Virus record (IMG/VR): IMGVR_UViG_3300011113_000265
Location: 33,018-97,017 of that record
DNA length: 64,000 nt
Reading direction: 5' to 3' (one strand)
Source of the DNA: a virus
Lineage: Duplodnaviria > Caudoviricetes
A program made the position numbers and the translations under genes. A model generated the notes under the pieces. That model was not told the origin of the DNA, made no database searches, and saw only the letters and a list, made by a program, of their open reading frames with translations. This document shows positions 6,467-60,618 of this stretch, piece by piece (within the stretch, counting starts at the first letter, position 1; every line of letters starts with the position of its first letter).

Positions 6467-6469
6467 GAT

Positions 6470-14000: not shown

Positions 14001-16980
14001 AATATTAGATAATGATATTGATATTGATGAAACTAAAAAGCTTTTAAATAAAGCTAATGACAGATTAAACCAACTTAATACTGCAATAGAAAATATAAAT
14101 AAAACTATATTTGAATTAAATAATCAAAAGAAAGATCTTATTACTTTAGGTTTAGAAATTAAAGAATCTTTTGAAAAATCTGAAGGATTTTCTATCGAAG
14201 AGTTTATTAGAAAAATGGATGATTTAAATATACCATCTATTGAAAGAATATGGGCTAAAAATTTAGTTAAAGATTTAGAAGATTTGGCTAATACTAATGA
14301 TATTGATAATGCATTATATAATTTAGATATTCTTAAAAGTAATTTAGAAGTTGAAGTAAATAGAGTTACTAATATTATTGATATTTTAGAAAAAGCTTTA
14401 ATTAAATCAGAAGCTTATAAAGAATGGGTATTAGCTTCTAAAATAGAAGGATTACCTGGATGGTTTAGTAGTAAATGGAATGTTAGTAAAACAACAGATC
14501 CATTTAAACTTAGTGCTAAATCTAATGATTTAAAAGATATAAAAAAATTATATCAGTTTCAAAAATTAATGACTAAATATGCTAATGCAAATGGTATTAG
14601 TCCTGAAGAAGCATATCAAGAATACTTAAATGATTTAAATCAATTAAAAGAAGAAACTAATAATTTTGATAATAATCTTAATAGAACTTATCAAGAAATA
14701 GAAAGTATTAGAGAACATTTATTAATTAATAAAGCTGATTTAGTTAATTTAAAAAATAGATTAGCTGATGTTATTGATGTAATGGAATTTAATAAGAAAA
14801 GATCTCTTGTTAATACTATTCAAAAAAATCTTAATCAAATTAAAATTAAATATAGTAATATTGTTAATAAAGAAACTAAAAATCTTCAATTAGTAGATAA
14901 TCAAATAGGAAGTGATGCTCCTCCAATTGATGATGTTACTGAAGAAGATAATATTGAATTAGGTACTTCAAAAAGTGCTAAATCTAATAATCTTTTTTAT
15001 ACTACTAATAAAACAATATTACAAAAATCTAATGGAAAAACAGATTATGATAGTGAAGGATATCCAAAAACTAATCCTAATAATGATGCTGTTAGATGGA
15101 ATACCTTTTTAGAAAGAAATCCTGATTTAAGTAAAAACTTTGCATTACAAGCATTTATTTTACAAGATTTACCTGATGACTCTCCACTTAAAATAGCTGC
15201 ATTAGAACGCATAAAACAAGGTGGTGGTACACCTAGTAGTACAGATATTATTACAGCTTTAGTAGATACTAAAACTGACGAACTAGTTAAAGCTAGTATT
15301 GATGGTATTCAAAATGGTGAAGTAGGTCAAGGGTTAGTTTATACATTTTTACCTCTTACAAGTAGTTTATTAGAAGGAGATTCTAAAGTAAATGGACCTG
15401 CATTATTTACATATTTTAATAATTTTGGTTTAAAAGATTTAGGATATAATTCAATTAATTTACAATCATCTATAATGAATTTAGATAAATCTCATGATGG
15501 TGATTTAATAGAACTTACTAAAAAAGATGGAACTAAACTTAAAATAACTTTAGCAGAGTTTAAAAATATGACTTTAGAATATGCTAAAAATAAGCATATT
15601 GAATTTATTAATATAATTATTACATCTAGTAGAAGTGGTAAAAAAGTATTTTTACCTATAAAAGGAGTAACTAATGGTATTTTATTAAAGAAAGAATCTG
15701 TTGATGGTTCTAATGTAATGCAACCAGTTCGTAATATATTAGCAGATAGAAGAAATATTGATACTTCAACTGATACAGGTTTAGATAATGTTAAAATATT
15801 TGTAGTTGATAAAAAAGTTGATCAGTATAAAATACCTGGTACAAATATTATTATTGATAATCCTAAATTAGGAGCTACTATAATTTATAATGCAAAAACA
15901 AAAGAATATTTTTATGCTAATCAAAGAAATATTAATGATGATGAAGTTGATTTAATATTTCATTTGTTAGAAATGATTGCTAATAATCCTGAGAAAAATT
16001 TGAACATGCAAGTAAAAATTGGTGGTCAAGATAATAGATTTTATATTGGAGCTAATGGTGATAGAATATCTGAAATAGATATTTTTAGAAAACAAGGAAC
16101 TATATCTCTAATGAATAATCTTATTTATTGGGGAGGTAAACCTAAAACAGAAGCTACTAAACATACTATTTATATTGATAAAGGTAGAATATTTTATCCT
16201 AATCCTAATAACAACTTTGCTTTAGAATTTATATCTTTATCAGATATAAGAAATATTGGTAAAAATAAAAATTTACAAGCTTATTTAAAAACTAAAAGAT
16301 TTAATGTTAATACTAATATGATGAAAAATACAGGATTATATTTTCATCCAGTATTAAAAAATGGTAAATTAGATTGGGTTGCTTTTAAAGGAGGTTATAA
16401 AGATATGTTGTTAAATGGTAATGCTAAAATGGATCCTGTATTAATAACAAGTGCTATTGATAGTAATAATAGTAATTATAAGGGAAATAAATTATTATTT
16501 GCTTCTAAAAATATTATATTAGATATTAATAATGACGGTATACCTTCTATAATGAATGATTATAAAAAACAACAACCTGCAAAAAGTCCAATAATACCTC
16601 CTATTGTAGCAGGTACATATACTACTACAACAACTAGTCAACCTATTGCTGAACCTGTATTTACTGATAAACAAGGTTTACCACAAAATTTAGAAGATAT
16701 AGAAGTTACAGATGAATTTTTAAATGAGAATGCTGTTATAATAGGAAAATCAAGCAAATCAACTTTTGTATCAGGTGTTACAAATGAACTTATATTTTCT
16801 GAAACACCACTTATTACAAAAACAACGCCTCCACCATCAGATACTAATCAAGGTGCACAACCAGAAGTTGTAGAACAAAAAACTGAAGAATTAAAAGATC
16901 AGTGTGAAGGTAATACTCCTAATACACCTACTAAAAAACCTAAAGGATTTGGTAAAAATAATAATCCATTAGGTATTTAA
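11083..16980 (+). CDS. Giant virion cargo/ejection protein (membrane-type N-terminus, coiled coils)
   Basis: 1965 aa; Gly/Ala-rich hydrophobic helices (LGFAGGAMAAGYVSGALF, FILGAMTGLIMPGGG), GEARIEA and EGLEEFFQ motifs, long coiled coil; precedes the vRNAP gene. Confidence 0.65.
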   Translation: MPLDNNNIGHIDDIRARLAVKAKAPNFATAITLKPDQISQYDTQFEIPIGGDWESALGEYKAQQQPGIDQLANGLVKGAVLAGTTFADTFGGTLSGVLNMALNGSEQGYLNAFVNNPFSNAMQDINDASEKAFANYRTRAEQEMGVFEQMGTANFWGDMFIKNLGFAGGAMAAGYVSGALFSGLTQGVRARQEAELFKKMTKNVITKDAKSVEEGIQMLANAERTGLLNVEAAELKQLLEDSGKAYRNLNRANQLTSSALAATGEARIEALGNGRQFQKAKLQELNAEFKNSDGTFKAGKTQEEYNNKLNQLDDLVKGFQNSEFLINTALLTASNFIGYRNFFAKDYGLNAGRFDDLISINSIKNITAGEDIAKLIQTKWYSTLGKSLMGSGREGLEEFFQTVTQKSADNYYSAKFNGVDPDAFTSLAAGMNEAMGKEGLESFILGAMTGLIMPGGGLISEFKQAKQLNKDAAERVADLNNSVKAYVEQYKTNPESVFMNFYDMINRDVNLNKAQLKALLDDDKYTYENLKNDKFYNMASAFINAGKYNDLVDILEEETKLSADDLRVKYSVPTDPADPNSPKKEFFKNWTDDEIKTYVANQSRKNTDAVKNIRDLMNNIESRYGKQLALVKTEDGTKKVEIKNILARHLFLGETLDRRLTSVHNELLKMFADAEPANVLDTTDGFAITDFINNASRQLEEVNDENFKKILKNFEKVAKNSSDPKKMIELFTDYIQLAGDRKAHNAAWIRLTENSFTNLLNRLQTEDQKQAEKNIEQTNKELNDEEKINIVREKAKAAGYSKVGNYFTITDNNGNVKKYELDPIDIFNERKKLQEEFNNNLSQLDPNDTEAIKALEEDYAFKKDDLVNKANQALIKDFETGEYLKENNQYVKFNKEFALKNYNKIQFIPREQAVSIKRSKVIQNSNRRKIEAVRQVLLELNKDINSNIAQIDALNNEKSQLENDIKFFNEYLLILDNDIDIDETKKLLNKANDRLNQLNTAIENINKTIFELNNQKKDLITLGLEIKESFEKSEGFSIEEFIRKMDDLNIPSIERIWAKNLVKDLEDLANTNDIDNALYNLDILKSNLEVEVNRVTNIIDILEKALIKSEAYKEWVLASKIEGLPGWFSSKWNVSKTTDPFKLSAKSNDLKDIKKLYQFQKLMTKYANANGISPEEAYQEYLNDLNQLKEETNNFDNNLNRTYQEIESIREHLLINKADLVNLKNRLADVIDVMEFNKKRSLVNTIQKNLNQIKIKYSNIVNKETKNLQLVDNQIGSDAPPIDDVTEEDNIELGTSKSAKSNNLFYTTNKTILQKSNGKTDYDSEGYPKTNPNNDAVRWNTFLERNPDLSKNFALQAFILQDLPDDSPLKIAALERIKQGGGTPSSTDIITALVDTKTDELVKASIDGIQNGEVGQGLVYTFLPLTSSLLEGDSKVNGPALFTYFNNFGLKDLGYNSINLQSSIMNLDKSHDGDLIELTKKDGTKLKITLAEFKNMTLEYAKNKHIEFINIIITSSRSGKKVFLPIKGVTNGILLKKESVDGSNVMQPVRNILADRRNIDTSTDTGLDNVKIFVVDKKVDQYKIPGTNIIIDNPKLGATIIYNAKTKEYFYANQRNINDDEVDLIFHLLEMIANNPEKNLNMQVKIGGQDNRFYIGANGDRISEIDIFRKQGTISLMNNLIYWGGKPKTEATKHTIYIDKGRIFYPNPNNNFALEFISLSDIRNIGKNKNLQAYLKTKRFNVNTNMMKNTGLYFHPVLKNGKLDWVAFKGGYKDMLLNGNAKMDPVLITSAIDSNNSNYKGNKLLFASKNIILDINNDGIPSIMNDYKKQQPAKSPIIPPIVAGTYTTTTTSQPIAEPVFTDKQGLPQNLEDIEVTDEFLNENAVIIGKSSKSTFVSGVTNELIFSETPLITKTTPPPSDTNQGAQPEVVEQKTEELKDQCEGNTPNTPTKKPKGFGKNNNPLGI

Positions 16981-17002
16981 TAAAATATAATATAAAATAA
17001 AT

Positions 17003-20000
17003 ATGATTTTTGCATGTCCTATTAAAAGTTCACAAGCTTGGAAAGATTTAGAAGCTACTTATGGTAAACAAATGGCTTGGAATCTTTATTACATGAATGC
17101 TGGAACAATACCTTCATTAACTGAAGCTAAACTAATTCGTGTAAATCATGAATCACAATTAAATAGTTTTATGTTTGAAGATATAAAACTATCTAGTACT
17201 GAAAAAGATGATTTATTTAAAACTTTAAAGTATTGGTTTATTAGAAATATGACAGGTAGTTTTGATACATTAGATAAATTAGAAAATTTATTAGAAGATG
17301 AAATAGATTCTAAAACATTAAGAACTATATATGAAAATACTTTAACAGACATATTTAATAATATTGGTCCTGAACCAGGCAGTAGATTAGAACAAATATT
17401 TATTGCAATAGTTAAAGATCATCCTTATGATGAAACTACTAAATCTAATATATTTTTAGAAGAGTTTGGTATTGATGCAGGTTATGGTCAAGGATTAATA
17501 TATAATCAATTTAAAAAACAATTAAATAATTTACTTAGTTTTGAAGTTGATGATGAATCTGAAAATGAAAAAACTAAAGGTAATGAAGATGTTAAAGATT
17601 CTTATGGTAAAGAAGCATTAAAACAAAATAGAAAAGATAGTTTCTCTAGAGGTATTAAATTATTACTATCAGGTATTCCTAAATTACAAGGTACAAATTT
17701 ATCAGATATAAATAGTTATGTAACTACTCAAACATTTGGTAGTGCTCAACCTATGGATCAATCTACAGTAAATAATTTATTATTAAATACATTTGCTAAT
17801 ACACCTGCTAACATAAATGATTTTTTTGAAAAGATATATAAAGAAAAAGATAATAATCCTACAATTAATTGGTTGTATGAAAAAATATTTCAACATGTTA
17901 AAGTAACAACTAATGAGCAAGGTATAATTGTTAATTCTGAAATTAAAGCTGATGAAACTAATTTAGCTAGATTAAATCTTATTAATAAGTTTATACAATC
18001 ATTTGCTAATTATAAATATAAATTAAATTCTTTTGTTGTTAGTCCTTCTGATTCTTCTGCAGAAGGTTTTAATATTAAAAAACAAGACGCTGATACTAAC
18101 AATCTTAAAAATAGGATGTTAAAAGAATGGGATGCTAATTTAATTAAAAATTATTCTGAAGGTTTTGTAGATTCTAAAGGTTATAAAATTAATTTTAATT
18201 CAAATCAAGGATTTTTAAATTATATCTTAAATGAAAAAACTCCTTTAATTGATAGATTAACAGCTTTAGGTATTCCTAATATTGAAAATAGAATGTTAGA
18301 TTCTGAAGAACTATTACCAATTAGAAATACTAAAGCAACTCTTTTCGATGTATCTAGTCAATTATTAAATAGTATTAGAACTAATCAAAATAAAATACTT
18401 AATTTAAGTAATATACAAGAAATATTTAATCCTAAAGCTAAAGATGAATTTCTTGATATGCATGTATCAGTTGTTGGTATATTAGAGCATTTAATACCTT
18501 ATAGAAAAGATTATGATAATCAGCTTTATAATATAGATGGTAATTTAATTAGTAGTATTAATTTGAATAATTATCAAACTTTAATGTTAACTAGATTACA
18601 ATCAGCTGTTAGTAAAGCATTAAAAATATATCCTGATGATTGGGCTAAAAATAATGGTAAAAATGTTTTAGAATATTTAAATAATGAAATTCCTGAAGCT
18701 TTAAATTTATGGTCTAGTGATAGTATATTTTTAGATAGAATTATTAGAGGTAATAACTTATCTATTGAATTATTAGATGGTATGACTTCTGTTGGAGAAT
18801 CAGGTGTACATACTTCAGTTTTATCTGAAACAGATCTTTGGAGTACATTTATTGATAGTAGTTTAGATAATTTATTTCCTGCAATAAAACACGCAGATAG
18901 AAGTATGTTTTATGGATATAGTTTTGGTTATGGAGATACAGATATACTAAGTAATAGTGGTAAATATGTTCCTAATGTTGAATGGAAAAATGTTTTTAAA
19001 AATTATTTATTTAAATATTTAGATACTGAAATTAGACGTATAAGAATTGCTCAAGATAAAAATAGTATAGGTAATCAAATTCAAAATTATAATAAACAAA
19101 GTAAAAAATTTATTTTATTTGAAGATATATTAGATGTTAATAATTCAGCTAATCAAAATAAAATAGATGATTTAATTAATAGTTATACAGGGTTTGATAA
19201 TTTAGTAAATAATCCTTGGGTAGCTGATAGATTTGAAAATTGGAGTAATCAATATTTTACAAAAACTATTGCTGCAGCTAACTCTGTAGGTATAGGTGAA
19301 AATATAAAAAATTCTGGTATTGATGCAAAAATATTAAATAAACTATATGTAGCTTTAGATTATTCTGCTAGAAGTAAACCTAAAAATAAACAATTTTTAG
19401 ATGAGGTTATTAGTATTGCAGCAGCTAAATATTTTATTGGTTCTATAGAACAATCTAAATTATTTTTTGGTGATCCTGCATTATACAATATAAAAGAATC
19501 AGATGGTATTCTTATATATGATATGATTAAAAGGGTTAATATGCAATCATCTACTAAGATGGTTGGTATTGTTGATGATATTAATAATAGTTTTTTAAAT
19601 AATCTAGCATTAGATAAAAAATATCAAATATCTTTTGATGGGCAAAATTACTTTTCTTATAAAAAGAATTTTGATGGTACTATTACAGAATTAGTTATTA
19701 ATGATCCTAAAACAATAACTTCAATAGGTACTGAACTAGCAATGATTTTTGGTGAAGATTCACCTGAATATAAAGCTTATACTAAAGGATTTGAAGAACC
19801 AGATGGTTATAGTATAGGTAATATATTCTTTGCTCTTGAAGGTATAATTAGAACTGAAGGTATTGCTTCAGGTAGACTTAATGTATTAGAAAAAGAATTA
19901 AAAGCACTACATTCTTCTAAAGAGGAAATTAATAAGTTATATACAATACCTAAAGGTATGAGTGCTAAAGATTATATGACTAATGAATTAAGACCTTTTA

Positions 20001-23000
20001 CTCAACAAAAGTTTCAATATTTAGGTCCTAATTATATGACTGATAGAGATTCATATATTAAAAGTGGATCTGAAGGTGAATGGAAAAATAGATTAGGTTT
20101 TGTTGCAGGTAGAAAAACATCTTATGGTTATTTAATGCCTAGTATGGTTAAAGGTACTGTATTAGAACAATTAAATAGATTTATGTTAGAGAATGGTATA
20201 GACGTTATACATTTTAGTTCTGCTGCTAAATTTGGTGCAGGTAAAACTAGAAACTTTTATAGTACTACTACAACACCTGAAGGTATAACACACACTACTA
20301 GATTTAATAACGCACCTATTGAATATGGTGAAATAGGTTATTTAGATTTTAGATATATGGGTAAACAACAAGAAGTTTCTTATGAATCTAAAAATGAAGC
20401 AAGTGATAGTACTCAAGGTAGAAAAACTAATTTAAGTGGTATTATTGAAAATGGTGAAGCTATTAATGAAGAATTAGAACAATATTTAGAAGAGTATGAT
20501 AATATTTATAGAGATTTAATAAGTGAGTTAATTAAAGAATTAAGTAACTCTTATAAGTTATCTCCAGTTACTTTTAATATGATGGACACTATGAAGTTTG
20601 TTAATCTTATTAGAAAGCAAGCTGAACAAAGAGATTCTCCTAATAATATTATTGATTCTATTGTAGATTGGGCTAATAGTGATACTACTCTTAAATATAT
20701 TGAAAGTTTAGCTAACTATCAAAAAATACAATATGTATTAACTAGTATAGTTACTAATAAACTACTTATATTAAAAAGACCTGGTACAATGCTTCCACAA
20801 TCTCCTAGTACTGGTTGGGAAAATAAAGCTAGACAAGTAATTGGTGATAAATTAGTAGCAAGTGATGAGTATAAATTTTATACTTTTGAATATGATACTG
20901 ACGGTAATATAATTAAAGTTAATCCTTGTGAATGTGCAATACCTTTACCTGTTAAATATATAGATGGTTTATTAGATTATTATGATGGTTCACAAGTATT
21001 AGTTAATAATGAAATTATTAGAAAACCTAATGCTCAACGTAGTATATCAAAACTTATTGATATATTAAATGAGGAAATAGAATCTGGTAATGTTCAACAT
21101 CAAATTACTATTAAAGGTCTTAGAATTCCTAATCAACAAATGTCTTCTAATGATGTATTTAAAGTTAAGAAATTCTTAAATCCTATCTATAATCAAACTA
21201 TTATAGTACCTAATGAAATTATTGTAAAGACTGGATCAGATTATGATATCGATAAGGAAAGTTTATACTTTCCAATATTAGATGATAAGATGATGATTAA
21301 AGGTCCTGATGAATTAAATAATATACAAAAAGCACAACAAGATTTATTAAGTTTAGAAATTAAAATGTTGCTGCATCCTAGTAGAGTTAAAAGATTACTT
21401 ACACCAGTAACAGAAGGTTCTATTAAACAAATTGCTAAAGATAAACAAAAACAAATTGCTCAACAAGAAAAAAATAGTCCTAATAAAACTGTAAATAAAC
21501 CAGCTACACATTTATTTGAAATGTCTAGTTTAATTGATGGTACATTAGAATATGTAGGTGGTAAGAAAGGTGTAGGTATTGTTGCTACTTGGATTACATT
21601 TCACAAATTAGCTGAAAGATATAAAATTACACTTAAACCTAGTTATTATGATGCTAGTAAAGAAACTTATATATCAACAGCTTTAAATAATCAATTTCTT
21701 GATGGTGTAGATAAATATGATACAGAAGGTAATATAATATTTTATAATACTTATAATGAACATAATGGTGTTATTGAACAAATAGAAGATATTCTTAGTT
21801 CATTAATCACTAGTCAAGTAGATATTGTAAAAGATAGTTATTCATCTGTTGTTAATATTAAACTTAATACACTTAATTTAGTATGTTATTTAGTAATGAG
21901 AGGTTGTTCTACTCAAAGTATAATTAATTTTATAGATAATCCTTATGTTAAACAATTTAATAAAATTAAAGATATAAATAAAGCACAATCTATTAATAGT
22001 GATTATGCTAGATCTAATAAAGATATTGTTGAATTTATTGCTAATAAAAATAAAAATATTGAAGCTTTATTAAATGAATATATAAAATTAAGTGAACAAT
22101 CTTTTAAAATTAAAGATGTTAAAGATTATTTATCAGCTGATACTAAGTATTTAAAAAGTCCTGAAGAAGTTTGGGAAGTAGATAATACTTTATACAGTAA
22201 AATAATTTCTACAGAAGGACTTATTTCTGAAAATCAAATAAATAATTTAAGAGATAATAGTTTGCTTAGTGGTTTTATTACATCAAGATCATTAATTAAC
22301 ACTATATTTGATCGTTTATATCTTACAAGAAATTCTAGTAATAAAGAATTAGTTAATAAACAATCTTTATTAACCAGAAATGGTTTTTCACATATCTTTA
22401 ATACAGAAGCTAAAAACAAAGCTGTAAAGCGTTATAATGAACATTTTGTTACGTTCCTTATACAGAATATTATTAAACATAATTATGATAATTTAAAGAG
22501 TGGACCTAATAGTTTAGCTAAAAGAATATTAAGAGCTAAGGATAATCCTCAATTTAAAAATAATACTTTAATAAAACAATTAGTTGCTATTATTGATAAT
22601 AAATTAGGCAATAATACTAATCAACAAATAGATAATATTAAATTATATTTTAGTAAATTAACTACAGCTGAAACTAATAATCTAATTAGTAACTATGAAG
22701 ATATAGAAAAAATTGATAATGATTTATATAAAGATTTAGTATATTTTAATTTATATCAAGCTGGTATATCTAATAGTCCTTATCAATTAAATAAAATACT
22801 TTCTTATAAAGGACAAAAATTAGTATTAAATGCTATTAATAGTCCTGAGATACAAAAGTTGCTTACAGATGAAAATCTTGCTATATTTTATGATAAGTTT
22901 TTTAAGAATAATCCTACTTTAGTTAAAAAAAATAGAAAAATTAAAGCTTCCGATTTTGTTGAAAATAATGATTTTGAAAGTTTTGAAAAATCAATGGATT

Positions 23001-23449
23001 ATATTTCAAATCCTTTCTTATTATATACTAAACAATATACTAAAGAAAGTAAGATTGTTTTACAAGATGAATTTGGAAATACAATTATACCTGAAGGTGG
23101 TGTTAATGGTATAGATTATACTATTAAACCTGGTGATAAAGCTAATGAAAAGATAGTAAACTTAATTAGTAATTATCAAATATCTGAAATTGCTGAAGCT
23201 CCTAGTAGTGAAACTGTTGCTAAACAAGCTATTGTTGAACTTACTCAACCTACTACACCTACTCAACCACAAGCTGATACATTTTATAATCTTAAAGATT
23301 TTTCAGATGAACAGAAATTTAGTATATTAGATAATATGATATCTAAAGGTGATGCTACTACTGAAGAAGATGCTGTAGATCAATTAAATCAAATGTTAGC
23401 AACTGATAAGCAGTTTGCTGTTGAATATATGAAATCTTGTTTAACTTAA
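17003..23449 (+). CDS. Virion-packaged DNA-dependent RNA polymerase (phi14:2 gp66-like)
   Basis: 2148 aa; GLRIPNQQMSS followed by VKTGSDYDIDK (DxDxD metal motif), FFGDPALY, SSAAKFG, GGKKGVGIVA, SQVDIVKD. Confidence 0.88.
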   Translation: MIFACPIKSSQAWKDLEATYGKQMAWNLYYMNAGTIPSLTEAKLIRVNHESQLNSFMFEDIKLSSTEKDDLFKTLKYWFIRNMTGSFDTLDKLENLLEDEIDSKTLRTIYENTLTDIFNNIGPEPGSRLEQIFIAIVKDHPYDETTKSNIFLEEFGIDAGYGQGLIYNQFKKQLNNLLSFEVDDESENEKTKGNEDVKDSYGKEALKQNRKDSFSRGIKLLLSGIPKLQGTNLSDINSYVTTQTFGSAQPMDQSTVNNLLLNTFANTPANINDFFEKIYKEKDNNPTINWLYEKIFQHVKVTTNEQGIIVNSEIKADETNLARLNLINKFIQSFANYKYKLNSFVVSPSDSSAEGFNIKKQDADTNNLKNRMLKEWDANLIKNYSEGFVDSKGYKINFNSNQGFLNYILNEKTPLIDRLTALGIPNIENRMLDSEELLPIRNTKATLFDVSSQLLNSIRTNQNKILNLSNIQEIFNPKAKDEFLDMHVSVVGILEHLIPYRKDYDNQLYNIDGNLISSINLNNYQTLMLTRLQSAVSKALKIYPDDWAKNNGKNVLEYLNNEIPEALNLWSSDSIFLDRIIRGNNLSIELLDGMTSVGESGVHTSVLSETDLWSTFIDSSLDNLFPAIKHADRSMFYGYSFGYGDTDILSNSGKYVPNVEWKNVFKNYLFKYLDTEIRRIRIAQDKNSIGNQIQNYNKQSKKFILFEDILDVNNSANQNKIDDLINSYTGFDNLVNNPWVADRFENWSNQYFTKTIAAANSVGIGENIKNSGIDAKILNKLYVALDYSARSKPKNKQFLDEVISIAAAKYFIGSIEQSKLFFGDPALYNIKESDGILIYDMIKRVNMQSSTKMVGIVDDINNSFLNNLALDKKYQISFDGQNYFSYKKNFDGTITELVINDPKTITSIGTELAMIFGEDSPEYKAYTKGFEEPDGYSIGNIFFALEGIIRTEGIASGRLNVLEKELKALHSSKEEINKLYTIPKGMSAKDYMTNELRPFTQQKFQYLGPNYMTDRDSYIKSGSEGEWKNRLGFVAGRKTSYGYLMPSMVKGTVLEQLNRFMLENGIDVIHFSSAAKFGAGKTRNFYSTTTTPEGITHTTRFNNAPIEYGEIGYLDFRYMGKQQEVSYESKNEASDSTQGRKTNLSGIIENGEAINEELEQYLEEYDNIYRDLISELIKELSNSYKLSPVTFNMMDTMKFVNLIRKQAEQRDSPNNIIDSIVDWANSDTTLKYIESLANYQKIQYVLTSIVTNKLLILKRPGTMLPQSPSTGWENKARQVIGDKLVASDEYKFYTFEYDTDGNIIKVNPCECAIPLPVKYIDGLLDYYDGSQVLVNNEIIRKPNAQRSISKLIDILNEEIESGNVQHQITIKGLRIPNQQMSSNDVFKVKKFLNPIYNQTIIVPNEIIVKTGSDYDIDKESLYFPILDDKMMIKGPDELNNIQKAQQDLLSLEIKMLLHPSRVKRLLTPVTEGSIKQIAKDKQKQIAQQEKNSPNKTVNKPATHLFEMSSLIDGTLEYVGGKKGVGIVATWITFHKLAERYKITLKPSYYDASKETYISTALNNQFLDGVDKYDTEGNIIFYNTYNEHNGVIEQIEDILSSLITSQVDIVKDSYSSVVNIKLNTLNLVCYLVMRGCSTQSIINFIDNPYVKQFNKIKDINKAQSINSDYARSNKDIVEFIANKNKNIEALLNEYIKLSEQSFKIKDVKDYLSADTKYLKSPEEVWEVDNTLYSKIISTEGLISENQINNLRDNSLLSGFITSRSLINTIFDRLYLTRNSSNKELVNKQSLLTRNGFSHIFNTEAKNKAVKRYNEHFVTFLIQNIIKHNYDNLKSGPNSLAKRILRAKDNPQFKNNTLIKQLVAIIDNKLGNNTNQQIDNIKLYFSKLTTAETNNLISNYEDIEKIDNDLYKDLVYFNLYQAGISNSPYQLNKILSYKGQKLVLNAINSPEIQKLLTDENLAIFYDKFFKNNPTLVKKNRKIKASDFVENNDFESFEKSMDYISNPFLLYTKQYTKESKIVLQDEFGNTIIPEGGVNGIDYTIKPGDKANEKIVNLISNYQISEIAEAPSSETVAKQAIVELTQPTTPTQPQADTFYNLKDFSDEQKFSILDNMISKGDATTEEDAVDQLNQMLATDKQFAVEYMKSCLT

Positions 23450-23463
23450 AAATATAAAATATA

Positions 23464-23874
23464 ATGTTACCTAAATTAAAAGGAAGTCAAATGGAACCTG
23501 CTGGTTCAACTAAAGCTGCTGTGCAAGCTATATCACAATGCTTATTTGAAGTTGAAATTCAAATGCATATAGTACATTTACAAGCAAGAGATAAATCATT
23601 TGCAATGCATGAAGCTCTTGGTGCATTCTACTCATCACTAGCTGATCTTAATGATGATTTAGTAGAAAAGAGTTTTGTTAAGACTGGTCTTATGATGAAT
23701 TACACTAGTATGAATATTACTAATAATGTAGAACCTATTTCTTATATTAAAAAAGAAATGGCTAAGATTGAGTCTATGAGAACTAAAGTTACTGAAGGTT
23801 ATATACAACAAATAGTTGATAATATACTTGAGCAATTTGCTCATGCAATTTACAAACTTGAAAATCTACACTAA
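23464..23874 (+). CDS. Ferritin/Dps-like four-helix protein (DUF5856-like)
   Basis: HIVHLQ...FAMHEALGAFYSSLADLNDDLVE...IYKL pattern. Confidence 0.7.
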   Translation: MLPKLKGSQMEPAGSTKAAVQAISQCLFEVEIQMHIVHLQARDKSFAMHEALGAFYSSLADLNDDLVEKSFVKTGLMMNYTSMNITNNVEPISYIKKEMAKIESMRTKVTEGYIQQIVDNILEQFAHAIYKLENLH

Positions 23875-26800
23875 TGGCTGTATTTTGTATAACAACTAGT
23901 AATCCTGAATTCCAAAAGCTACTAGCTGAAAGTGGAAAGAAACAAGGCGTGTTTGCTATGATGGTTTCTAAATGGATGACTGAAAATGAAGTATATGATA
24001 GGTACCCAACTTTACAAGAGTTGGGTATTTCTCCTATAACTAGTGTTAAACCAAATAAATTATTTGGATTATCTGAATCAGAAAATTTACAATTTAGTAT
24101 AAATACACTAAATGCTATAAATGAATTTTTACAAGAAATTGGAGTAGAACAAAGATTTATTTCACAATTTATGAATGAGCAAGGTATTGCTCAAGATAAT
24201 GTTCTTGCTGCTGCTAATTTTATTCAAGGTACTGTTGATATAATTGATGATGTAGAAAAAAGACCTTTAGCATGGGATAAACTTCCTGAAGAAGCTGCTC
24301 ACTGGTGGTATAGATTATTAAAACATTCATCACCTTTAAAAAAATCATTATGGGAAGCTGCTAAAAATTCTGATAAATTAAAAGAACTAGCAGGTTCTAA
24401 TTATGGTGATTATAATTCATTAGATGCTTTTACAGAAGAAGCTATTGGACAATTAATTGCTGAATCTATATATAGAATTCAAAATAATAAAGCAACTGAA
24501 GCAGATAAAAATTTTTGGGATAAATTTATTGATTGGATTAAAAAATTACTTAATAAAGTAGAACAACATATAAATACTCCTTTTGATGAAGCTGCTGAAA
24601 AAATATTAAATAAAGATATAAAAGATTTATATGATTTAGAATATTATTCTAATATTGTTAATAGGTTAACTGATAATGAATTAGATAAAATTGTAAATGA
24701 TATTCATAATAATGATATTATATATGATTCTAAAAATAAAAATATTATATATCAATATAATAATTTAGCGTATAATATTAATTTTTATCTTGATGAGTCA
24801 AATAAACAACTTAATTTAAATTTTAGTTCTCAATTTGATACTCAAAATCCTTATACAAATTTTATACAAACAATTATTCCTGATATATGGCAATATCAAA
24901 GTTCAGGTTTTTCAAAAACAGATATTAATAGTATTTCTAGTGATGAAGAATTAACCGAATATTTAATGGATGCTCTTCAATATTTCAATTTAAGTAAATA
25001 TGAAGAAGTTAAACAAAATATTCAAAAGTCAATTTCTAAATCATATTCAGATATTACAGATATTAATATTTTAAAACAAATATTTAATAGATTATTTAGT
25101 GATGGAGCTTTTGATGAATTATTTCAAGAATATAAAAATAAATCTATAAATAAAGGAAAGTTTATTGTTGAATTAAAAAAAATAACTAATAACTATATTA
25201 ATATAAATAATTCTCAAATAGATATTAATTTATTAGATAAAGAATTAAATTTAAAATCAACAAGAGTATTTAATAAAGGACATTTTCAAAAAATAGAATT
25301 ACCTAGAATTTTAAATGCTTTAGTTTATAATAAATTAAATGATATTAAAGCTAATAAATATTTACTAGTTAAAAATTTTAGAGAAAATTCTAAAGATTTA
25401 TCTACAGATACAATTAAAACAATTTTTAAATTAAATGAATTAATAGATCGCAAACTTAAAAATAAACCTATAGATAGTAGTAAATTTAAAGAAGAAGCTT
25501 TAAAAAAGATATATGATATTATAATTAATGATTTTAATGATTTAGGATATTCAGATTATATTATTAATTCTAATCAAAATAATTCAGTTGGATTTAAAAT
25601 AAATGATTTATTATTTGATGATTTTAAATTATTAGAAAATATAAAATATGATTCTAAAAATAAAGGTATAAGATTTTGGGCAGAAATACCTGAAACATTT
25701 TCTCAAGTTTATGGAAATAGTTTTTTTGTTAAATTATTAATAGATAATTTAAAGAAAGATAATATTTATAATGATATTATGAATCCTATAAAAGGATATT
25801 ATGATAAAATTAAATTTTCAAAATATTCTTTTAGTAATTTAAATATAAAAAATATTAATTCTGATGAATTTAAAGAAATTTTATTTTTTGATAGTATATT
25901 ATTATCATCTGATTTAAAACAAAATTTAAGTAATATTGTTAAAGAAAAAACTGGTAAATCTTTAAGTGTTTATTTTTCTAATATATTAAATAATACATTA
26001 AATACTGAATATTTAAATAGTGAGAAAAAAATAATTAATAGAAAATTAGGAGTTAATAAATTATATTCTGAAGAATATTTTAAATCTTTTGATAAAATAG
26101 ATAGATTTTTTATTGCTGCTAAAATTTCTGAAATTTTAGAAACAAGTAATAAAAAAGTAATTACTGAACTTGCTGTTCTAAATGTAATGAATCAAATTAA
26201 TTATGATCCAAATGAAGCTTATGAAAGAGGTTTTGGATTTTATCATGGTTTTCCAGGATATTCAGATCAAACTGAAACAAATGAAATAACTTTTAGTGAT
26301 GTTAAAAATTTTGTAGATGGTGTATTATGGAGTACTGATAGAGAATTACATTTTCCATTATCAACTTATACTGCTCAATCTAAATTTAAAAATGAAAAAT
26401 GGAATCATAAATTAGGATCACGTAGACAACAAGTTAGAATTGTTTTATTTCCTGAATCTTCTGATATTAAATTAGCAGGTAAAGATGATATTTATTCAGG
26501 TCAAAGAGATAGTGTAAGATTAGAAGAATTAAATTTAAAGTTACCTGTTACTAAATATTATTTTAGAGATGTTGATAGTATTACATCAACTATTGCAGAT
26601 TCAATAGAACTTAGAGATCATAATCATAATGAACAAGTTATTGATTTAAAAAAAGGTAGATTTTATTTTGAATATGATGATGATATTTCAGATGAAATTA
26701 AAAATTATTTAAATACAGTAAATCAAAAATTATTAAATAATTTAAAAGTAAATCCAAATATTATTAATGAAAACTCTGATTATATTGATAATTCACCTTA

Positions 26801-27308
26801 TGTTGTTAAAAGAACTAATAAATCTTTAATTGATATTAAAAAATCTAATGAAGTAAATAAAAAATTTACTAAAGGTCCTTTAATTAATATATCTAAATTA
26901 TATAAAGATATTAAAAAAGAATTAACAGAAGATAAAATTATAAAATATAAATTAGAAAAAAGAGAAAATTTAACTAATTATTTAGAAGCTTATATAAAAG
27001 ATTTTAAAGAATTTAATCAAGTATTAAATCAATATACTGATTATCGACAAGATAAAGAAAATCTTTTATATAATAATGATATAATTGAAGTAATTGATTT
27101 TTATTTAAATAGTGGTGAAGCTCCAACTTTTACTAATTTTCAATCTCATGTTAATACTAATAGAATAAATTATTTATTTGCTATAGATCAAGCTAATAAA
27201 CAAACTTATTCTTATAGTAGTCAAACTGGATTAGCTATGTCTAATGCTGAAGCTAAAGCTTTTAATAGTTTAGTAAATGATGGTACAATATCAATTAAAT
27301 GTGAATAA
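23874..27308 (+). CDS. Large virion cargo protein with degenerate zincin-like N-terminal domain
   Basis: 1144 aa; LPEEAAHWW...EEAIGQLIAE...FWDKFIDWIKKL; very AT-rich centre. Confidence 0.55.
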   Translation: MAVFCITTSNPEFQKLLAESGKKQGVFAMMVSKWMTENEVYDRYPTLQELGISPITSVKPNKLFGLSESENLQFSINTLNAINEFLQEIGVEQRFISQFMNEQGIAQDNVLAAANFIQGTVDIIDDVEKRPLAWDKLPEEAAHWWYRLLKHSSPLKKSLWEAAKNSDKLKELAGSNYGDYNSLDAFTEEAIGQLIAESIYRIQNNKATEADKNFWDKFIDWIKKLLNKVEQHINTPFDEAAEKILNKDIKDLYDLEYYSNIVNRLTDNELDKIVNDIHNNDIIYDSKNKNIIYQYNNLAYNINFYLDESNKQLNLNFSSQFDTQNPYTNFIQTIIPDIWQYQSSGFSKTDINSISSDEELTEYLMDALQYFNLSKYEEVKQNIQKSISKSYSDITDINILKQIFNRLFSDGAFDELFQEYKNKSINKGKFIVELKKITNNYININNSQIDINLLDKELNLKSTRVFNKGHFQKIELPRILNALVYNKLNDIKANKYLLVKNFRENSKDLSTDTIKTIFKLNELIDRKLKNKPIDSSKFKEEALKKIYDIIINDFNDLGYSDYIINSNQNNSVGFKINDLLFDDFKLLENIKYDSKNKGIRFWAEIPETFSQVYGNSFFVKLLIDNLKKDNIYNDIMNPIKGYYDKIKFSKYSFSNLNIKNINSDEFKEILFFDSILLSSDLKQNLSNIVKEKTGKSLSVYFSNILNNTLNTEYLNSEKKIINRKLGVNKLYSEEYFKSFDKIDRFFIAAKISEILETSNKKVITELAVLNVMNQINYDPNEAYERGFGFYHGFPGYSDQTETNEITFSDVKNFVDGVLWSTDRELHFPLSTYTAQSKFKNEKWNHKLGSRRQQVRIVLFPESSDIKLAGKDDIYSGQRDSVRLEELNLKLPVTKYYFRDVDSITSTIADSIELRDHNHNEQVIDLKKGRFYFEYDDDISDEIKNYLNTVNQKLLNNLKVNPNIINENSDYIDNSPYVVKRTNKSLIDIKKSNEVNKKFTKGPLINISKLYKDIKKELTEDKIIKYKLEKRENLTNYLEAYIKDFKEFNQVLNQYTDYRQDKENLLYNNDIIEVIDFYLNSGEAPTFTNFQSHVNTNRINYLFAIDQANKQTYSYSSQTGLAMSNAEAKAFNSLVNDGTISIKCE

Positions 27309-27538
27309 TGTTATTACAATTAAACCCAACAATACCTGTGTATATCCCTGAGTTTGATGCTGAAGGATATGCATTTTTAGTTAATGAAACACATGAAGAA
27401 GATTATCTTTATTTTACTGTTGCTTTAGATAATGGTGAGATATGGATACTTGATAATAGAAGAGTTAGATTTTGTGTTAATAGAACTAAATCTAGAAATA
27501 AAATAAATAAATTAAATAAATCAGAATACATAAAATGA
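27308..27538 (+). CDS. Small hypothetical phage protein
   Basis: 76 aa; start and stop overlap both neighbours. Confidence 0.6.
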   Translation: MLLQLNPTIPVYIPEFDAEGYAFLVNETHEEDYLYFTVALDNGEIWILDNRRVRFCVNRTKSRNKINKLNKSEYIK

Positions 27539-30500
27539 GTTGTTCAATAGATCCAGATAAAATAACAGTTGGTGAAGTTAGAGATCTTGTTAGGCGTAAA
27601 GAATTTAGTGAATTTAAACCTAATAAAGATGATGCTGCTTCTGATGTTATTAAAAAAATACAAGCTTTACAAAATAAAGTAACTACTGAATTAGTAGATA
27701 ATACACAGCTAGTTAAAGGATATCATTTAGATCCTAGTGGTAAGACTATGCGTTATGTATGGTTAGATACTAAAGAACTAGCTTTTAGTGGTAGGGTAAC
27801 TGATATTAATAAAGCTAAATTTGTTAAAAGAAAAGGTGTTAAAGCTGCTGAAGAATTATCTAGTTTACCTGATAATATTATAAAACGTGATGCTGGTACT
27901 AAAGTACATAAAGCATTAGAAAAACTTGCTTTTTGGTTTATTAAAAATGATAAGTCTGGTTTAGTTGCTAATGATTTATCTAAAATACCTGATGTTGATG
28001 AAGATCAAATAAAAAATGAATTAGGTGTTTCAGATGGAGTTTTTTTAAATTTAAAAGAAGCATTTTCTGAAATATGGAGTACTGTTAAAAGTACACAAAA
28101 ACAAATTGACCCTAATGGAAAGTTTTGGATAAATCCTGAAACTTTTATGTTAGATTTTACAACATTTGATAAAGGTGGTACTGCAGATTTACTTATAGTT
28201 TACTCAGATAAAAGTGGTGGTTTATTTGATTATAAAACCATGAGTCCTTTAACAGATGAGAATTATAAAATTAAAGATCCTAATTGGATTGCTGATTATA
28301 AAATAGATGAGTTTAATACTCAAATATCTACTTTAATAGATATGTATAAAAAAATAGGTATTACTAAATTTAGACATGCTAGAATTGTACCTATTCAAAT
28401 TAGTTTAGCTCCTAAAGCTAAAACTGATACTACTAAAGCAGAAGGTGCTAAATTAACTGATAAATTTGTTACTGTTAAAATGGGTGAAAAGTTTGATGAA
28501 TATCTAACTCAAATACCTATTATAGTAGAAGAAACTGGTAATGAATCTTTAGATAGAGCTATTAAAGAAGCAATTACTCTTAAAAATAATCTTAATAAAA
28601 GATTAAAAAAATATAAAGAGGATAGTGCTGAGTATAATAAATTAGTATTTAGAATTAAAAAACTAAATAAAAGTATTAATGAAATTATGCTTAATAAAGA
28701 TATTAACTTTATGTTTAAACAATATAGAGAACTTGTTAATAGATATATGAAGGGTAATTCTTTAATGGTAGAAACAAGAGATCCTAATAATTCTTTATTT
28801 TTAAATAATCAAAAGATTAAAGATTTACTTGATGATTTAAGTATATTTGAAGCTATTGCTAGTTCTACTCCTGACTTTATTGATTCACTTGAATTAGGTG
28901 ATTTTACTCCTGAATCATATTTAAATGCTTTAAATGAAATACTAGGTAAAACAACTTTTTTAAAAAATAGTTTAGAGCAAAGACTTATTGATTTAAACTT
29001 AACTACTGATGAATATCAAGCTGCTAAGAATGATAAAAGCTTAAGTTGGTTTGATAAGTTATTTAGAAGATTTAGTAATATTAATAATACTATTTTTCAA
29101 AAAGTTAAACAACTATTAGACTTAGCTAATACAAGAACTAGATTAGATATTAGAAACTTTGAGAGCCAGCTAAAAAAAATAGATCAGGCCGTACAAGCTT
29201 ACGGTAACTCTGTAGGACTTTCAGGTATGAAAGTGTATGAACTATTTGTAAATAAAAAAACAGGTAATTTACATACTAAATACCTTAGTAAATTTTATGA
29301 TGAGTTATCTGAAGCTAGAAAAGATAAAGATGATGCTTTTTTAAATAAATATCTTAAACTTCGTGAAGATGCTCAAGAAATATTTGAAAAACGCAAACTT
29401 GATTATATGTTTAAAAACTCTTTAGTAGAAAGTGATTTAGAAAAAAATGATGCTTATATTAAATGGGAATCTGAAAATAATCCATCTAAACCTAGTTCTA
29501 ACACTAAATATTCTAACTATTGGTTTACTTATTATGAAATAAATGAAGATGCTATTCCTAATGAATATTTTAATCCTGATTTCATAAAGATTAAAAGCAA
29601 TCAAGCTTTATTAGATTATTATAATTTTTGGACAGATAGTATGGAAACCTTTAGAGAGTATCTTGATCTTAGTGGTGATAAAATACCTAGAAATTTTATA
29701 CCTTGGATTAAAGCTAATACTGTAGAACAGTTTATGAATAATGGGATTAATATATCTTTAGATAGTTTTAAAAACATTATGAGTATTCAAGAAAATAATG
29801 AACTTGTGTTTAGAGAAGGTTATATTGAATTAAAAAGTGAAATAGATCCTGACACTGGTTTACCTAAAAGAGAAATACCTAGATACTTTATTAATCCTTT
29901 AATTAATCAACAAGGAGAAATAGATAGTAGTTTAAAATCTTTTGATTTATCTTCAAGTTTAATGATATTTGCTGGTATGGCTTATAATTATAACAATCTT
30001 AAAGAACATGAAAATACTATTGAAGCTCTTAAAGAAGTTCTTGCTAAATTAGGTGTAGTACAAACTACTGCTGAAGGTAAAACATTACCTAATTCTGAAA
30101 TTGGTAAAAGATCTGCTGAATTTAAATTATTAGAAGATCTTATTAATTCTCAATTATATGGAGCTTATTATAAAGAAAAACCTAGTAAAGCAACACAAGG
30201 TCTTCAAAAATTAAGATCTTATCAACAACTTACTACATTAGCTTTAGATCCTATATCATCAACAGTTAACTTAATGGGTGCTAGAACTAATGCTTTGTTT
30301 CAAGGTGTTAAAGGTTATTTTTATACTAGAGCAATGTATAATAAAGCATTAGATAATAGATTTAGAGATACTGAAAGATATAAAGCTTTAGCACATTTTT
30401 TTCAACCATATGCTAATAAACGTGTAGATGAAATAGCAAAAGAATTTAAAGGTAATAAGATTGCTAAAAAATTTAGTTATGATAACTTATTTGTTGGTTT

Positions 30501-31653: not shown

Positions 31654-31669
31654 AATAAAAAGGGGAGTT

Positions 31670-32107
31670 ATGAAATTGTGGAAAGATATTCCAGGATATG
31701 AAGGATTTTATCAAGCTGATATATTTGGAAATATAAGATCTATTCGTTTTAAAAAACAAAAAAAGTTAAAATTTAGTTTTACAAAAACAGGATATTTAAA
31801 AATAAAATTAACTAATAGATATGGTAAACAAAATACGCATCAAGTTCATCGACTTATTGCATTAACATTTTTACCAAACTCTCAAAATTTACCAATAGTT
31901 CATCATAAAAATAATATAAGATCAGATAATAATATTGAAAATCTTGAATGGGTAAATCAAAAATATAATGTATTAAAAGAAAATAAATTATATATTACTT
32001 TATCAAAAAAAGAAAAATCAATTGTTGATGAATTTTCTAGAATGATTATAAAATATGGTGTTGAAAAATGTTATAATATTTTATATAAAATAAAAGGGGA
32101 GAAATAA
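31670..32107 (+). CDS. NUMOD4-HNH homing endonuclease
   Basis: WKDIPGYEGFYQ (NUMOD4), VHRLIALTF, VHHKNNIRSDNNIENLEWV; ATG at 31670 preferred to 31619. Confidence 0.9.
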   Translation: MKLWKDIPGYEGFYQADIFGNIRSIRFKKQKKLKFSFTKTGYLKIKLTNRYGKQNTHQVHRLIALTFLPNSQNLPIVHHKNNIRSDNNIENLEWVNQKYNVLKENKLYITLSKKEKSIVDEFSRMIIKYGVEKCYNILYKIKGEK

Positions 32108-50962: not shown

Positions 50963-51002
50963 ATTTTTATTTTTAAATTTATAATTTTGTTTTTAATTTT
51001 AA

Positions 51003-51887
51003 TTATCCTACTACTACTTTAGTAGCTGGTTCAGCTATTGTTTGATTAATATTATATTTATCACAAAGATATTGAGCTATTTCAACATCATTGTTATTAA
51101 TACAATTAATAATTGCTTGACAATCTTCAATATGTTCATCCATTACAAAACCATTATTAATAGCTTCAATAGCTGCAAAAGTATTATCAAATACCCACTT
51201 AACATGTTCTAGAGATTGAAACCAGAATTGACCTAGAGTTCTAAGTTCAGTAGTTACGCTACCAATTCTATGTTCACCAGCTTTACCATAAAGTTTTCTT
51301 CTTAAACTACCATTAGTATTAATTAGAATACTTGGAATAGTAAGATACAAATCCAATACTCTAATAAGATTAATAGAAGTTTCATAATTCATATTAGCAT
51401 ATGAAATATGTAAATGACCACCCACAGATCTAAGATTACTATCTGTAGCACTAGGTCTTGGATTTACTTCTAAATTCCAAGCATTCATACTAGGACTGCA
51501 ACCAAATTCTTGAGCAATAGGATTATCTAATTCTTTATCACTAAAGACAGCAGCATCTGGACTACCATCATTAATTACTTCAATATTTAATCCTTTAGAA
51601 GCAAATTCTTTATTGATAAAATCAATAATAAACATACAATCATTATACATCTTAATATAATGATTAGTTGGAGGTAAAGTAAGCTCTAATGCTACGTTAT
51701 CCTCTTGTACACCATAACCATCTTTAATAAATCTAGGTGAATCTTTACTACCACCTATAAGACCAATACCTGATACATATTCTTTTGTTGTTTTATCTCT
51801 TAAAAAGAATTCTGGATCACTACCTAATCTTACATTTTCAATTTTAGTAAGATTATTTTTATCTAATTTTATTACAATATTTTTCAT
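51003..51887 (-). CDS. phiEco32-like COOH-NH2 ligase type 2
   Basis: LGSDPEFF, QEDNVALE, FGCSP, RSVGGHLHIS, RRKLYGKAGEHR, ELRTL. Confidence 0.9.
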   Translation of the reverse strand: MKNIVIKLDKNNLTKIENVRLGSDPEFFLRDKTTKEYVSGIGLIGGSKDSPRFIKDGYGVQEDNVALELTLPPTNHYIKMYNDCMFIIDFINKEFASKGLNIEVINDGSPDAAVFSDKELDNPIAQEFGCSPSMNAWNLEVNPRPSATDSNLRSVGGHLHISYANMNYETSINLIRVLDLYLTIPSILINTNGSLRRKLYGKAGEHRIGSVTTELRTLGQFWFQSLEHVKWVFDNTFAAIEAINNGFVMDEHIEDCQAIINCINNNDVEIAQYLCDKYNINQTIAEPATKVVVG

Positions 51888-60556: not shown

Positions 60557-60582
60557 GTTTTATTAAAATATTTGTTAAATAA

Positions 60583-60614
60583 TTTGGTATTTACAGAATT
60601 ATTCACTATCTTTG
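60583..60614 (+). promoter_or_regulatory. Bacteroidota housekeeping-sigma promoter (-33 TTTG / -7 TAnnTTTG) for the HNH gene
   Basis: TTTG at 60583-60586, 20-nt spacer, TATCTTTG at 60607-60614, ATG at 60619. Confidence 0.7.
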
Positions 60615-60618
60615 TATT

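Follow-up and report, generated by a model that had tools for sequence, protein, structure and literature searches.

Facing terminal cysteines suggest that split crassvirus cargo proteins may be linked head to tail in gene order

Cargo genes downstream of the muzzle gene

The stretch of 64,000 nucleotides analysed here (the window) is part of a virus record of 97,017 bases, IMGVR_UViG_3300011113_000265, which by Pfam encodes, besides the muzzle protein and ring protein 1, a crassvirus major capsid protein (Crass_capsid), ring protein 2 and ring protein 3/4, the last three elsewhere in the genome. Crassviruses are among the most abundant viruses of the human gut and must pack and inject ~6000-7000 protein residues, including their own RNA polymerase. 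Six large genes lie 3' of the muzzle gene on the plus strand and encode proteins of 862, 638, 1965, 2148, 1144 and 1372 amino acids (aa); two small open reading frames (ORFs), of 136 aa (DUF5856) and 76 aa, stand among them. The last four of the large proteins, the second of which is the polymerase vRNAP, carry cysteines at ends that face each other in gene order, and these cysteines, which probably join the proteins into a chain through disulfides, are the subject of this report. The genes of the block are listed below, with the members of the proposed chain numbered as its cars.

1520..6466, plus strand: muzzle protein, 1648 aa (Pfam crAss_MUZ, E 2.5e-148; crAss_MUZ_C, E 4.5e-16)
6470..9058, plus strand: 862-aa cargo protein without Cys, with a glycine-zipper segment (Pfam Gly-zipper_Omp, E 1e-5)
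9148..11064, plus strand: 638-aa cargo protein without Cys, in the place of crAss001 gp46
11083..16980, plus strand: 1965-aa gp47-like protein, first car (BLASTP against crAss001 gp47, E 1e-45)
17003..23449, plus strand: 2148-aa vRNAP, second car (matches annotated crassvirus RNAP genes and crAss001 gp50)
23464..23874, plus strand: DUF5856 gene, 136 aa, with Cys26 (Pfam DUF5856, E 7.7e-12; PHROG 858, E 2.5e-16)
23874..27308, plus strand: 1144-aa link protein, third car (homologues below; crAss001 gp49, BLASTP E 5e-6)
27308..27538, plus strand: 76-aa ORF between the 1144-aa and 1372-aa genes, no Pfam family
27535..31653, plus strand: 1372-aa protein, last car (crAss001 gp49, BLASTP E 1e-3)

The position downstream of the muzzle gene and the homology to gp47, the gp50 core and gp49 of phage crAss001 identify the block as crassvirus cargo. 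The core of vRNAP aligns with gp50 (BLASTP E 4e-5) and with records annotated 'putative RNAP catalytic subunit' (tblastn, E 1e-11), and since gp49 matches both the 1144-aa and the 1372-aa proteins, these two are a gp49 equivalent cut in two. The 1144-aa protein is laid out as a head module (~1-62), a domain that we call A1 (~59-265), a variable middle and a tail module ending in IKCE. The muzzle protein, which has 13 Cys (0.79%), opens the cargo block but stands outside the chain. The 862-aa protein, without a coupling Cys, occupies the place of crAss001 gp45, whose role as a channel former is itself inferred in the atlas of the crAss001 virion (PMC10172136; this source, PMC12002296 and PMC11445570 are cited for those parts of their text that were available to us). 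The DUF5856 gene between the polymerase and 1144-aa genes is not giant cargo and was given no place in the chain; a DUF5856/PHROG 858 gene is also kept between polymerase and link protein in the related locus L002, and loci L057 and L061 have unrelated Cys-free ORFs of 200-217 aa where the window has this gene.

Neither the four giants nor the 638-aa protein matched a family in Pfam or PHROGs, a collection of phage records held no close relative of the flagged DNA and none of the 1144-aa protein at E 1e-5, and vRNAP had no match among solved structures by phmmer. Presence of the cargo in virions is known for the crAss001 homologues (PMC10172136) and, from record notes, for phi14:2; the window phage is uncultured.

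Cysteines at the ends of the giants

Cysteine is scarce in the cargo, and much of it sits at protein ends. The six cargo proteins contain 10 Cys in 8129 residues (0.12%), against 311 in 30,571 (1.02%) over all called ORFs of the genome, and five of the ten lie no more than five residues from a protein end, a sixth being 24 residues from one. The 1965-aa protein has a single Cys, at residue 1941 (KDQCEG; codon 16903-16905), and no head Cys. In vRNAP there is Cys5 in the head (MIFACP; codon 17015-17017), Cys2146 in the tail (KSCLT; codon 23438-23440) and four internal Cys, at 1309, 1311, 1628 and 1635. The 1144-aa protein has only Cys5 (MAVFC; codon 23886-23888) and Cys1143 (IKCE; codon 27300-27302), and the 1372-aa protein only Cys3 (MSC; codon 27541-27543), with no tail Cys. 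The codons given here are all TGT. Among the internal Cys of vRNAP (window 20927-21907), C1628 is shared by all 15 sequences compared, and close relatives repeatedly show pairs such as 1309/1311 and 1628/1635.

An earlier note on this DNA had drawn attention to the terminal residues, all of which are present in the translations of the four giants, and had remarked that the first giant has only a tail Cys and the last only a head Cys, matching gene order, as is indeed seen in the window. Two of its descriptions needed amendment: the head and tail Cys of vRNAP are there, but the four internal ones had been missed; and the Cys of the 1965-aa protein, although present and conserved in 11/11 homologues, is subterminal (24 residues before the C-end, L-24) and not terminal. 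Read as a clasp, each upstream protein is poor in Cys and has one towards its C-end, at L-2 in vRNAP, at L-1 in the 1144-aa protein and just at L-24 in the 1965-aa protein, and each downstream protein has a Cys within its first few residues, at positions 5, 5 and 3.

Random placement of the observed numbers of Cys gives p = 3.7e-5 for the pattern of the 1144-aa protein alone, and the six single-end probabilities multiply to ~7.5e-13, an approximation in which independence is assumed. A chance origin of the terminal Cys was rejected on these probabilities.

Conservation of the terminal cysteines in each family

Homologues were examined for each of the four proteins, a check that the earlier note had proposed, and in all four families the terminal Cys is kept (11/11, 15/15, 16/17 and 16/18). 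In homologues of the 1965-aa protein, which were compared at 36-93% identity over the last third, a Cys lies 17-76 residues from the C-end, mostly 17-37, after an acidic helix and before a low-complexity tail, and none of the 11 has a head Cys. In the polymerase family, each of 15 sequences (self included) carries Cys at both ends, at position 3-5 in the head and 0-3 residues before the C-end in the tail; C5 is invariant in the polymerase alignment (A2) as well as in that of the 1144-aa protein (A3). The 1372-aa family has a head Cys at 3-6 in 16 of 17 homologues and a Cys in the last 14 residues in none of the 17; the lone homologue without a head Cys is a 976-aa form with a different N-end.

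For the 1144-aa protein, a profile-free search of the full database yielded 98 representatives. Sixty of these begin with M and reach 450 aa or more, and in them a Cys occurs in residues 2-8 in 55 and in the last four residues in 25, at a density of 105 Cys in 109,750 residues. Hits with a CIT-type head (n=18, 89-1028 aa) have Cys5 together with Cys L-1 in 16 cases, the remaining two looking truncated. Throughout this link family, which includes P0039-P0068, a head of ~60 aa and a tail of ~30 aa are kept and total length ranges from 89 to 1144 aa, so that the shortest members are hardly more than head and tail modules. With the ends kept and the length variable, selection therefore acts on the ends and not on the middle.

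A bacterial lipoprotein was also considered for the head Cys and was rejected: a lipobox has its Cys at about residue 15-25, after a signal peptide, and the Cys here are at residue 3-6 with no hydrophobic segment before them.

The same arrangement in reference crassviruses

The cargo blocks of phi14:2 and crAss001 are homologous to that of the window and follow the same terminal Cys rule.

phi14:2 g067, first giant, 1797 aa: a single Cys, the last residue
phi14:2 g066 (vRNAP), middle, 2180 aa: Cys 3 and 2179 only
phi14:2 g065, last giant, 1421 aa: a single Cys, at 3
crAss001 gp47, first giant, 2341 aa: a single Cys, at L-2
crAss001 gp50, middle: Cys at 5, 1334 and L-8
crAss001 gp49, last giant: a single Cys, at 5

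Of the remaining crAss001 cargo, gp45 has two internal Cys and gp46 none. Both reference phages have three cars and two links, whereas the window has four cars and three links because its gp49 equivalent is split again. Seven gut crassviruses from three families have one tail-head pair each, in which the head Cys occupies position 3-5 and the tail Cys is followed by 0-3 residues. In all ten complete blocks, the window included, the first giant has no head Cys, the last has no tail Cys, and tails equal heads in number. The genes of crAss001 gp47 and gp50 lie on opposite strands, and two of the three pairs in the window are separated by other genes; since pairs persist across intervening genes and strands, the rule acts on proteins and not through DNA signals, and an explanation at the DNA level (translational coupling or a shared signal) was rejected on these grounds.

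A Cys near the C-end of one protein and another near the N-end of the next is also the geometry that a ligation would use, and the ends could in principle be joined by a peptide bond through thioester chemistry, in a splicing-like reaction that would make the mature cargo a single polypeptide. This geometry is the one point in favour of such a ligation, which we consider very improbable: the four giants contain no Pfam or PHROG family, the head Cys is never residue 1, the annotation of the phi14:2 record, based on tandem mass spectrometry, lists the three giants as separate proteins, and the map of phage A4, described below, has a disulfide (PMC12002296). A split intein or trans-splicing, which would call for halves of a Hint/intein domain at the two ends, was rejected in view of the lack of any Pfam or PHROG family in the four giants and of head modules of ~20-60 aa.

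Facing cysteines at junctions of related loci

Related loci were fetched with an alignment of the A1 domain (~59-265 of the 1144-aa protein), which gave 79 viral loci with 10-kb flanks, in which ORFs were called from the first ATG. Collapsing A1 segments of >90% similarity left 61 representatives; 17 near-duplicates and L079, which had no BLASTP hit, were dropped. Two consecutive plus-strand ORFs, each 450 aa or longer and no more than 150 nt apart, were counted as a junction (n=54), a Cys in the last 10 residues of the upstream protein as a tail Cys, and one in the first 8 residues of the downstream protein as a head Cys.

Both Cys are present at 49 of the 54 junctions, the tail alone at none, the head alone at two and neither at three, and all five exceptions fall in two loci, L023 and L025. 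The head Cys is at position 3 (32 junctions), 4 (11), 5 (5) or 6 (3) and the tail Cys 0-8 residues from the end, and 37 of the upstream and 42 of the downstream proteins have no Cys other than the terminal one. In control ORFs taken from these loci (100-449 aa, n=258), a head Cys was counted 26 times and a tail Cys 10 times, and the giant ORFs contain 154 Cys in 273,968 residues (0.056%) against 1.37% in the controls. At junctions with larger gaps, both Cys occur across an intervening gene in L019, L057, L061 and the duplicate locus L045, neither in L031 and L038, and a head Cys alone in L024 and L076.

The two head-only junctions and L076, where the head has no tail partner, mean that a head Cys can exist alone, and they lend something to the view that each terminal Cys acts by itself, bonding to the portal, the capsid interior, a host protein or a second copy of the same protein. 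The tally speaks otherwise, with tail-only junctions at 0/54 and both Cys at 49/54, as many tails as heads in all ten complete blocks, no first giant with a head Cys and no last giant with a tail Cys, and pairs that vanish upon fusion (next section), and we regard independent action of the Cys as improbable.

The earlier note had in addition described a motif shared by two N-termini. It exists, with a spacing of x7 and not x6 (C-x7-[WF]-x2-L), and is found in 48 of 75 database hits with a head Cys but only in 12 of 61 heads in the representative loci, over a background of 2.3%. Certain head types tend to go with certain tail types: CP(N) heads occur with a last-residue Cys in 7/11 and CxhhRN heads with C+basic tails in 13/19. 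This association is inseparable from shared ancestry and is not taken here to prove that cognate ends dock. Head types also turn up at different junctions, the CITT head belonging to the polymerase in crAss001 and to the 1144-aa link in the window.

Cysteine pairs in split and fused genes

The giant crassvirus cargo behaves as a single long unit, consisting of a gp47-like part, the polymerase, the A1 domain and a 1372-like part, which different phages cut into two to four polypeptides at differing places. Every true cut shows a Cys at the end of the upstream protein and an M-x(1-4)-C start in the downstream one, and the remainder of these proteins is nearly free of Cys. Where polymerase and A1 are separate, the A1-bearing ORF has a head Cys in 47/47 representative loci; where they are fused, a Cys lies between the polymerase core and A1 in 0/9. 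The disappearance of the junction pair from fused orthologues, which the earlier note had named as a check on its idea, was thus found. ORFs in which A1 is fused to the 1372-like part (n=44 representatives) have no internal Cys whatever in 40 cases, and the Suoliviridae giants of 4272-4946 aa, in which the gp47-like part is fused to the polymerase, have no head Cys. The nearest internal Cys of the Suoliviridae giants (2037, 2041) were considered as a retained junction Cys and rejected, as they lie in the interior of a conserved domain and have no end-like motif. Fusions in relatives join only gene-order neighbours (gp47-like part with polymerase, polymerase with A1, A1 with 1372-like part), and the order of the chain is therefore fixed as gene order.

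Loci L043 and L045, which are 88-92% identical, differ at one such cut. In L043 a single 2307-aa protein contains just one Cys. In L045, through what looks like a recent event, three genes are found instead, encoding a 700-aa protein tipped with Cys at head and tail, a GIY-YIG homing endonuclease and a 1762-aa protein with Cys at its head, and nothing in L043 corresponds to the added tail and head peptides. The GIY-YIG genes at L045:8446-9231 (E 1.9e-11) and L019:14850-15335 (E 2.3e-10) are placed exactly between a tail-Cys and a head-Cys ORF, and L043, unlike L045, has neither an endonuclease gene nor a split. The crAssphage cr108_1 provides a negative control: its ORFs of 2967 aa and 798 aa are separated by a group I intron (RF00028, 80 bits, E 1.4e-20), and at this junction, which is mended in the RNA, there is no Cys pair. 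The cr108_1 intron, at L009:20566-20884, lies inside the giant polymerase gene, whose pieces the record lists as separate hypothetical proteins.

The terminal Cys might instead act once the cargo has been ejected, as a redox switch that governs how the polymerase complex assembles or works in the host, or as a modification site. Delivery of the cargo, polymerase included, into the cytoplasm agrees with such a role, and nothing more direct does. It leaves the tracking of pairs with splits and the placement near the ends unexplained, and the corresponding bond of phage A4 is already formed in the virion (PMC12002296), so that we judge action after ejection to be quite improbable.

A putative disulfide-linked chain

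A link of this type is known from one phage, the cyanopodophage A4 (Anabaena phage A-4L). In its pre-ejectosome, Cys1715 of gp27 and Cys5 of gp26 form a disulfide in the electron cryo-microscopy map of the virion (PMC12002296, PNAS 2025), and the tail helix of gp27 docks into a cleft of gp26 (PMC12002296). In the A-4L record that we checked, Cys1715 is the sole Cys of gp27 (1717 aa) and Cys5 the sole Cys of gp26 (1114 aa). In the crAss001 virion, both the tail and the portal vertex contain disulfides, and the atlas of this virion considers the order of ejection to be likely set by packing and mutual interactions (PMC10172136).

The conserved end Cys, the contrast between split and fused genes, the fusions in gene order and the A4 disulfide as precedent argue for the ordered chain that the earlier note had proposed. 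We put at roughly 0.65 the probability that the facing thiols join the split cargo by head-to-tail disulfides into a linear chain in gene order. The chain of the window would run from the 1965-aa protein through vRNAP and the 1144-aa protein to the 1372-aa protein, 6629 residues in all. At each junction the short head and tail modules would dock first, bringing the ends together, and the two thiols would then form an intermolecular disulfide in the virion. Because the links would sit at chain ends, the product would be topologically linear, and hence could be packed 1:1 and drawn through the narrow tail protein by protein in a partly unfolded state. The linkage may serve co-packaging and an ordered, untangled ejection, and host reductants in the cytoplasm would presumably free the parts.

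Several points weigh against such a chain. A disulfide between cargo proteins has so far been observed in no crassvirus, and gp46, gp47, gp49 and gp50 of crAss001 are not resolved in the virion (PMC10172136). Tail Cys can be subterminal (L-24 here, 17-76 residues from the end in homologues, L-8 in crAss001 gp50), and the internal Cys of vRNAP, of which there are four here, could compete for the bond. Thioredoxin-fold, Erv/ALR and DsbA-like proteins are all absent among the 84 ORFs of the genome by Pfam, so that no dedicated oxidase is evident, and oxidation after lysis is less assured in the anoxic guts that many crassviruses inhabit. Among the related loci, L023 is without the pair at two junctions, L076 has a head Cys with no tail partner, and L025 has a tail Cys 15 residues from the end at one junction, the sole Cys of the upstream protein, and a CxxC protein interposed at two others; that tail Cys sits in a CEG motif like that of the 1965-aa protein of the window. 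The junction and family counts, moreover, carry no correction for shared ancestry. A complex prediction for vRNAP 2049-2148 with residues 1-270 of the 1144-aa protein, made with the window segments alone and without alignments, scored 0.00, which speaks neither for nor against the chain.

In the main rival explanation the ends are docking modules that hold by non-covalent contacts, and their Cys is structural or bridges a metal with the help of other ligands. The head (~20-60 aa) and tail (~15-30 aa) modules are conserved beyond the Cys, their types are associated as described above (7/11; 13/19), and the A4 tail helix does dock in the cleft of the next protein as well as being bonded to it (PMC12002296). 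A metal would be poorly held by one Cys from each partner, however, with neither a conserved His nor a second Cys nearby, and several unrelated head sequences have just the Cys in common. The near-absence of Cys elsewhere fits thiol chemistry over packing, and the sole solved example, that of A4, is a disulfide (PMC12002296). We therefore consider docking without a covalent bond unlikely.

If the disulfide chain is true, it would explain the fixed stoichiometry, the order of exit and the tangle-free passage through the narrow tail, together with the purge of Cys elsewhere in the giants. Cys-poor giants with a facing tail-head pair would then be a simple marker that could find injected cargo, and its order, in uncultured phages. 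As far as we searched, a multi-link chain that includes a polymerase, a rule tied to gene splits across the order and a link protein of variable length are undescribed. Listings from full-text literature searches, with the phi14:2 polymerase paper and supplements outside their scope, gave no description of the junction rule in crassviruses, and the word 'cysteine' does not occur in the text of the crAss001 atlas that was examined (PMC10172136).

Beyond the chain itself, head and tail modules may be portable couplers, and the cargo a train in which cars are added, removed or cut; we offer this tentatively, as a doubtful extension of the disulfide chain. A free-standing homing endonuclease gene would land in a cargo gene along with tail and head couplers, and a disulfide would then repair the break in the protein, a third route of survival besides introns and inteins. 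The GIY-YIG genes between Cys-tipped ORFs, the contrast of L045 with L043, the presence of head types at different junctions and the variation in link length lend support to this extension. Were it true, any payload placed between head and tail couplers would be loaded and injected in a set order.

Structure models of the third and last cars and neighbouring genes

An AlphaFold2 model of residues 1-342 of the 1144-aa protein is confident only for the A1 domain, with a predicted local distance difference test score (pLDDT) of 74-87 over 70-235; the head module (1-69) has a pLDDT below 50, and the model is silent on exposure of Cys5. The A1 model gave weak matches to zincin-like folds in Foldseek (E 0.014-0.3), with none at E 0.001 or better, and the domain has no HExxH motif. 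A1 (window 24048-24668, motif LPEEAAHWWY) has 76 database representatives at E<=1e-10, in proteins of up to 6067 aa.

Residues 1-600 of the 1372-aa protein were modelled by AlphaFold2 with a pLDDT of 82. In this model, residues 77-333 (window 27763-28533) resemble a RecB/AddA-like PD-(D/E)XK nuclease fold: comparison with the AddA nuclease domain (3u44_A) gave a VIA Z of 8.4 (root-mean-square deviation 5.4, 160 residues aligned) and comparison with MGME1 a Z of 7.6 (166 aligned). The Foldseek rows are weak (E 0.06-0.35) and mostly from the nuclease superfamily (HincII, lambda exonuclease, Cas4 SSO0001, MGME1), and D218, D232 and K234 are invariant in 15 homologues. The last car would be an injected nuclease.

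An HNH endonuclease ORF (31619-32107; PHROG 59, E 1.8e-34) overlaps the 3' end of the 1372-aa gene. Elsewhere in the window, an NAPRTase-like gene on the minus strand (59319-62116) is apparently in two pieces, ORF 61235-62116 covering profile positions 1-78 and ORF 59319-60191 profile positions 56-193, separated by a 122-aa ORF and a Cys-rich plus-strand ORF (60619-61269). A minus-strand cluster at 46003-51887 encodes an amidoligase (PF12224), a phiEco32-like COOH-NH2 ligase and two glutamine amidotransferase-like proteins, the latter pair having an N-terminal Cys (starts MCLL and MCGL).

Comparison with known systems

Short terminal modules that put separate pieces in order are familiar from the docking domains of polyketide and non-ribosomal peptide synthetases, which are non-covalent and are not virion cargo, and genes split by free-standing homing endonucleases offer a second parallel. 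Crassvirus ends resemble both in logic only, with endonuclease genes lying in the splits of L045 and L019.

A4 offers a further likeness, in that its consecutive ejection-protein genes bear the identical tail-head Cys signature. Unlike the window phage, A4 belongs to the Saffermanviridae and has one link, not three, with no polymerase in the chain; in the available text of the A4 paper the bond is treated as a local stabiliser and no gene-split rule is stated (PMC12002296). The window cargo has no detectable similarity to A4 gp27 or gp26 (BLASTP and phmmer E above 0.2), and the likeness by sequence therefore lies in how the linkage works, not in family membership. A4 gp26 (9k3a_A) is not among the Foldseek rows listed for the model of residues 1-342 of the 1144-aa protein, nor among the Foldseek and VIA rows listed for that of residues 1-600 of the 1372-aa protein, which for a 600-residue model decides neither way.

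N4-like phages (Schitoviridae) offer a different comparison. Their vRNAP homologues contain 0.00075% Cys against 0.865% in the proteomes, and suppression of Cys in their ejected proteins has been explained by passage through the periplasm (PMC11445570), an explanation that accounts for the empty interior of the crassvirus giants as well. A 2026 paper on N4 mentions neither cysteine nor disulfide. The window cargo shares with the Schitoviridae a Cys content far below that of the proteome (0.12% against 1.02%) but differs from their lack of conserved Cys, its terminal Cys being conserved. The N4-type polymerase is one unsplit polypeptide with zero Cys, whereas the crassvirus giants retain Cys at the ends that face their neighbours.

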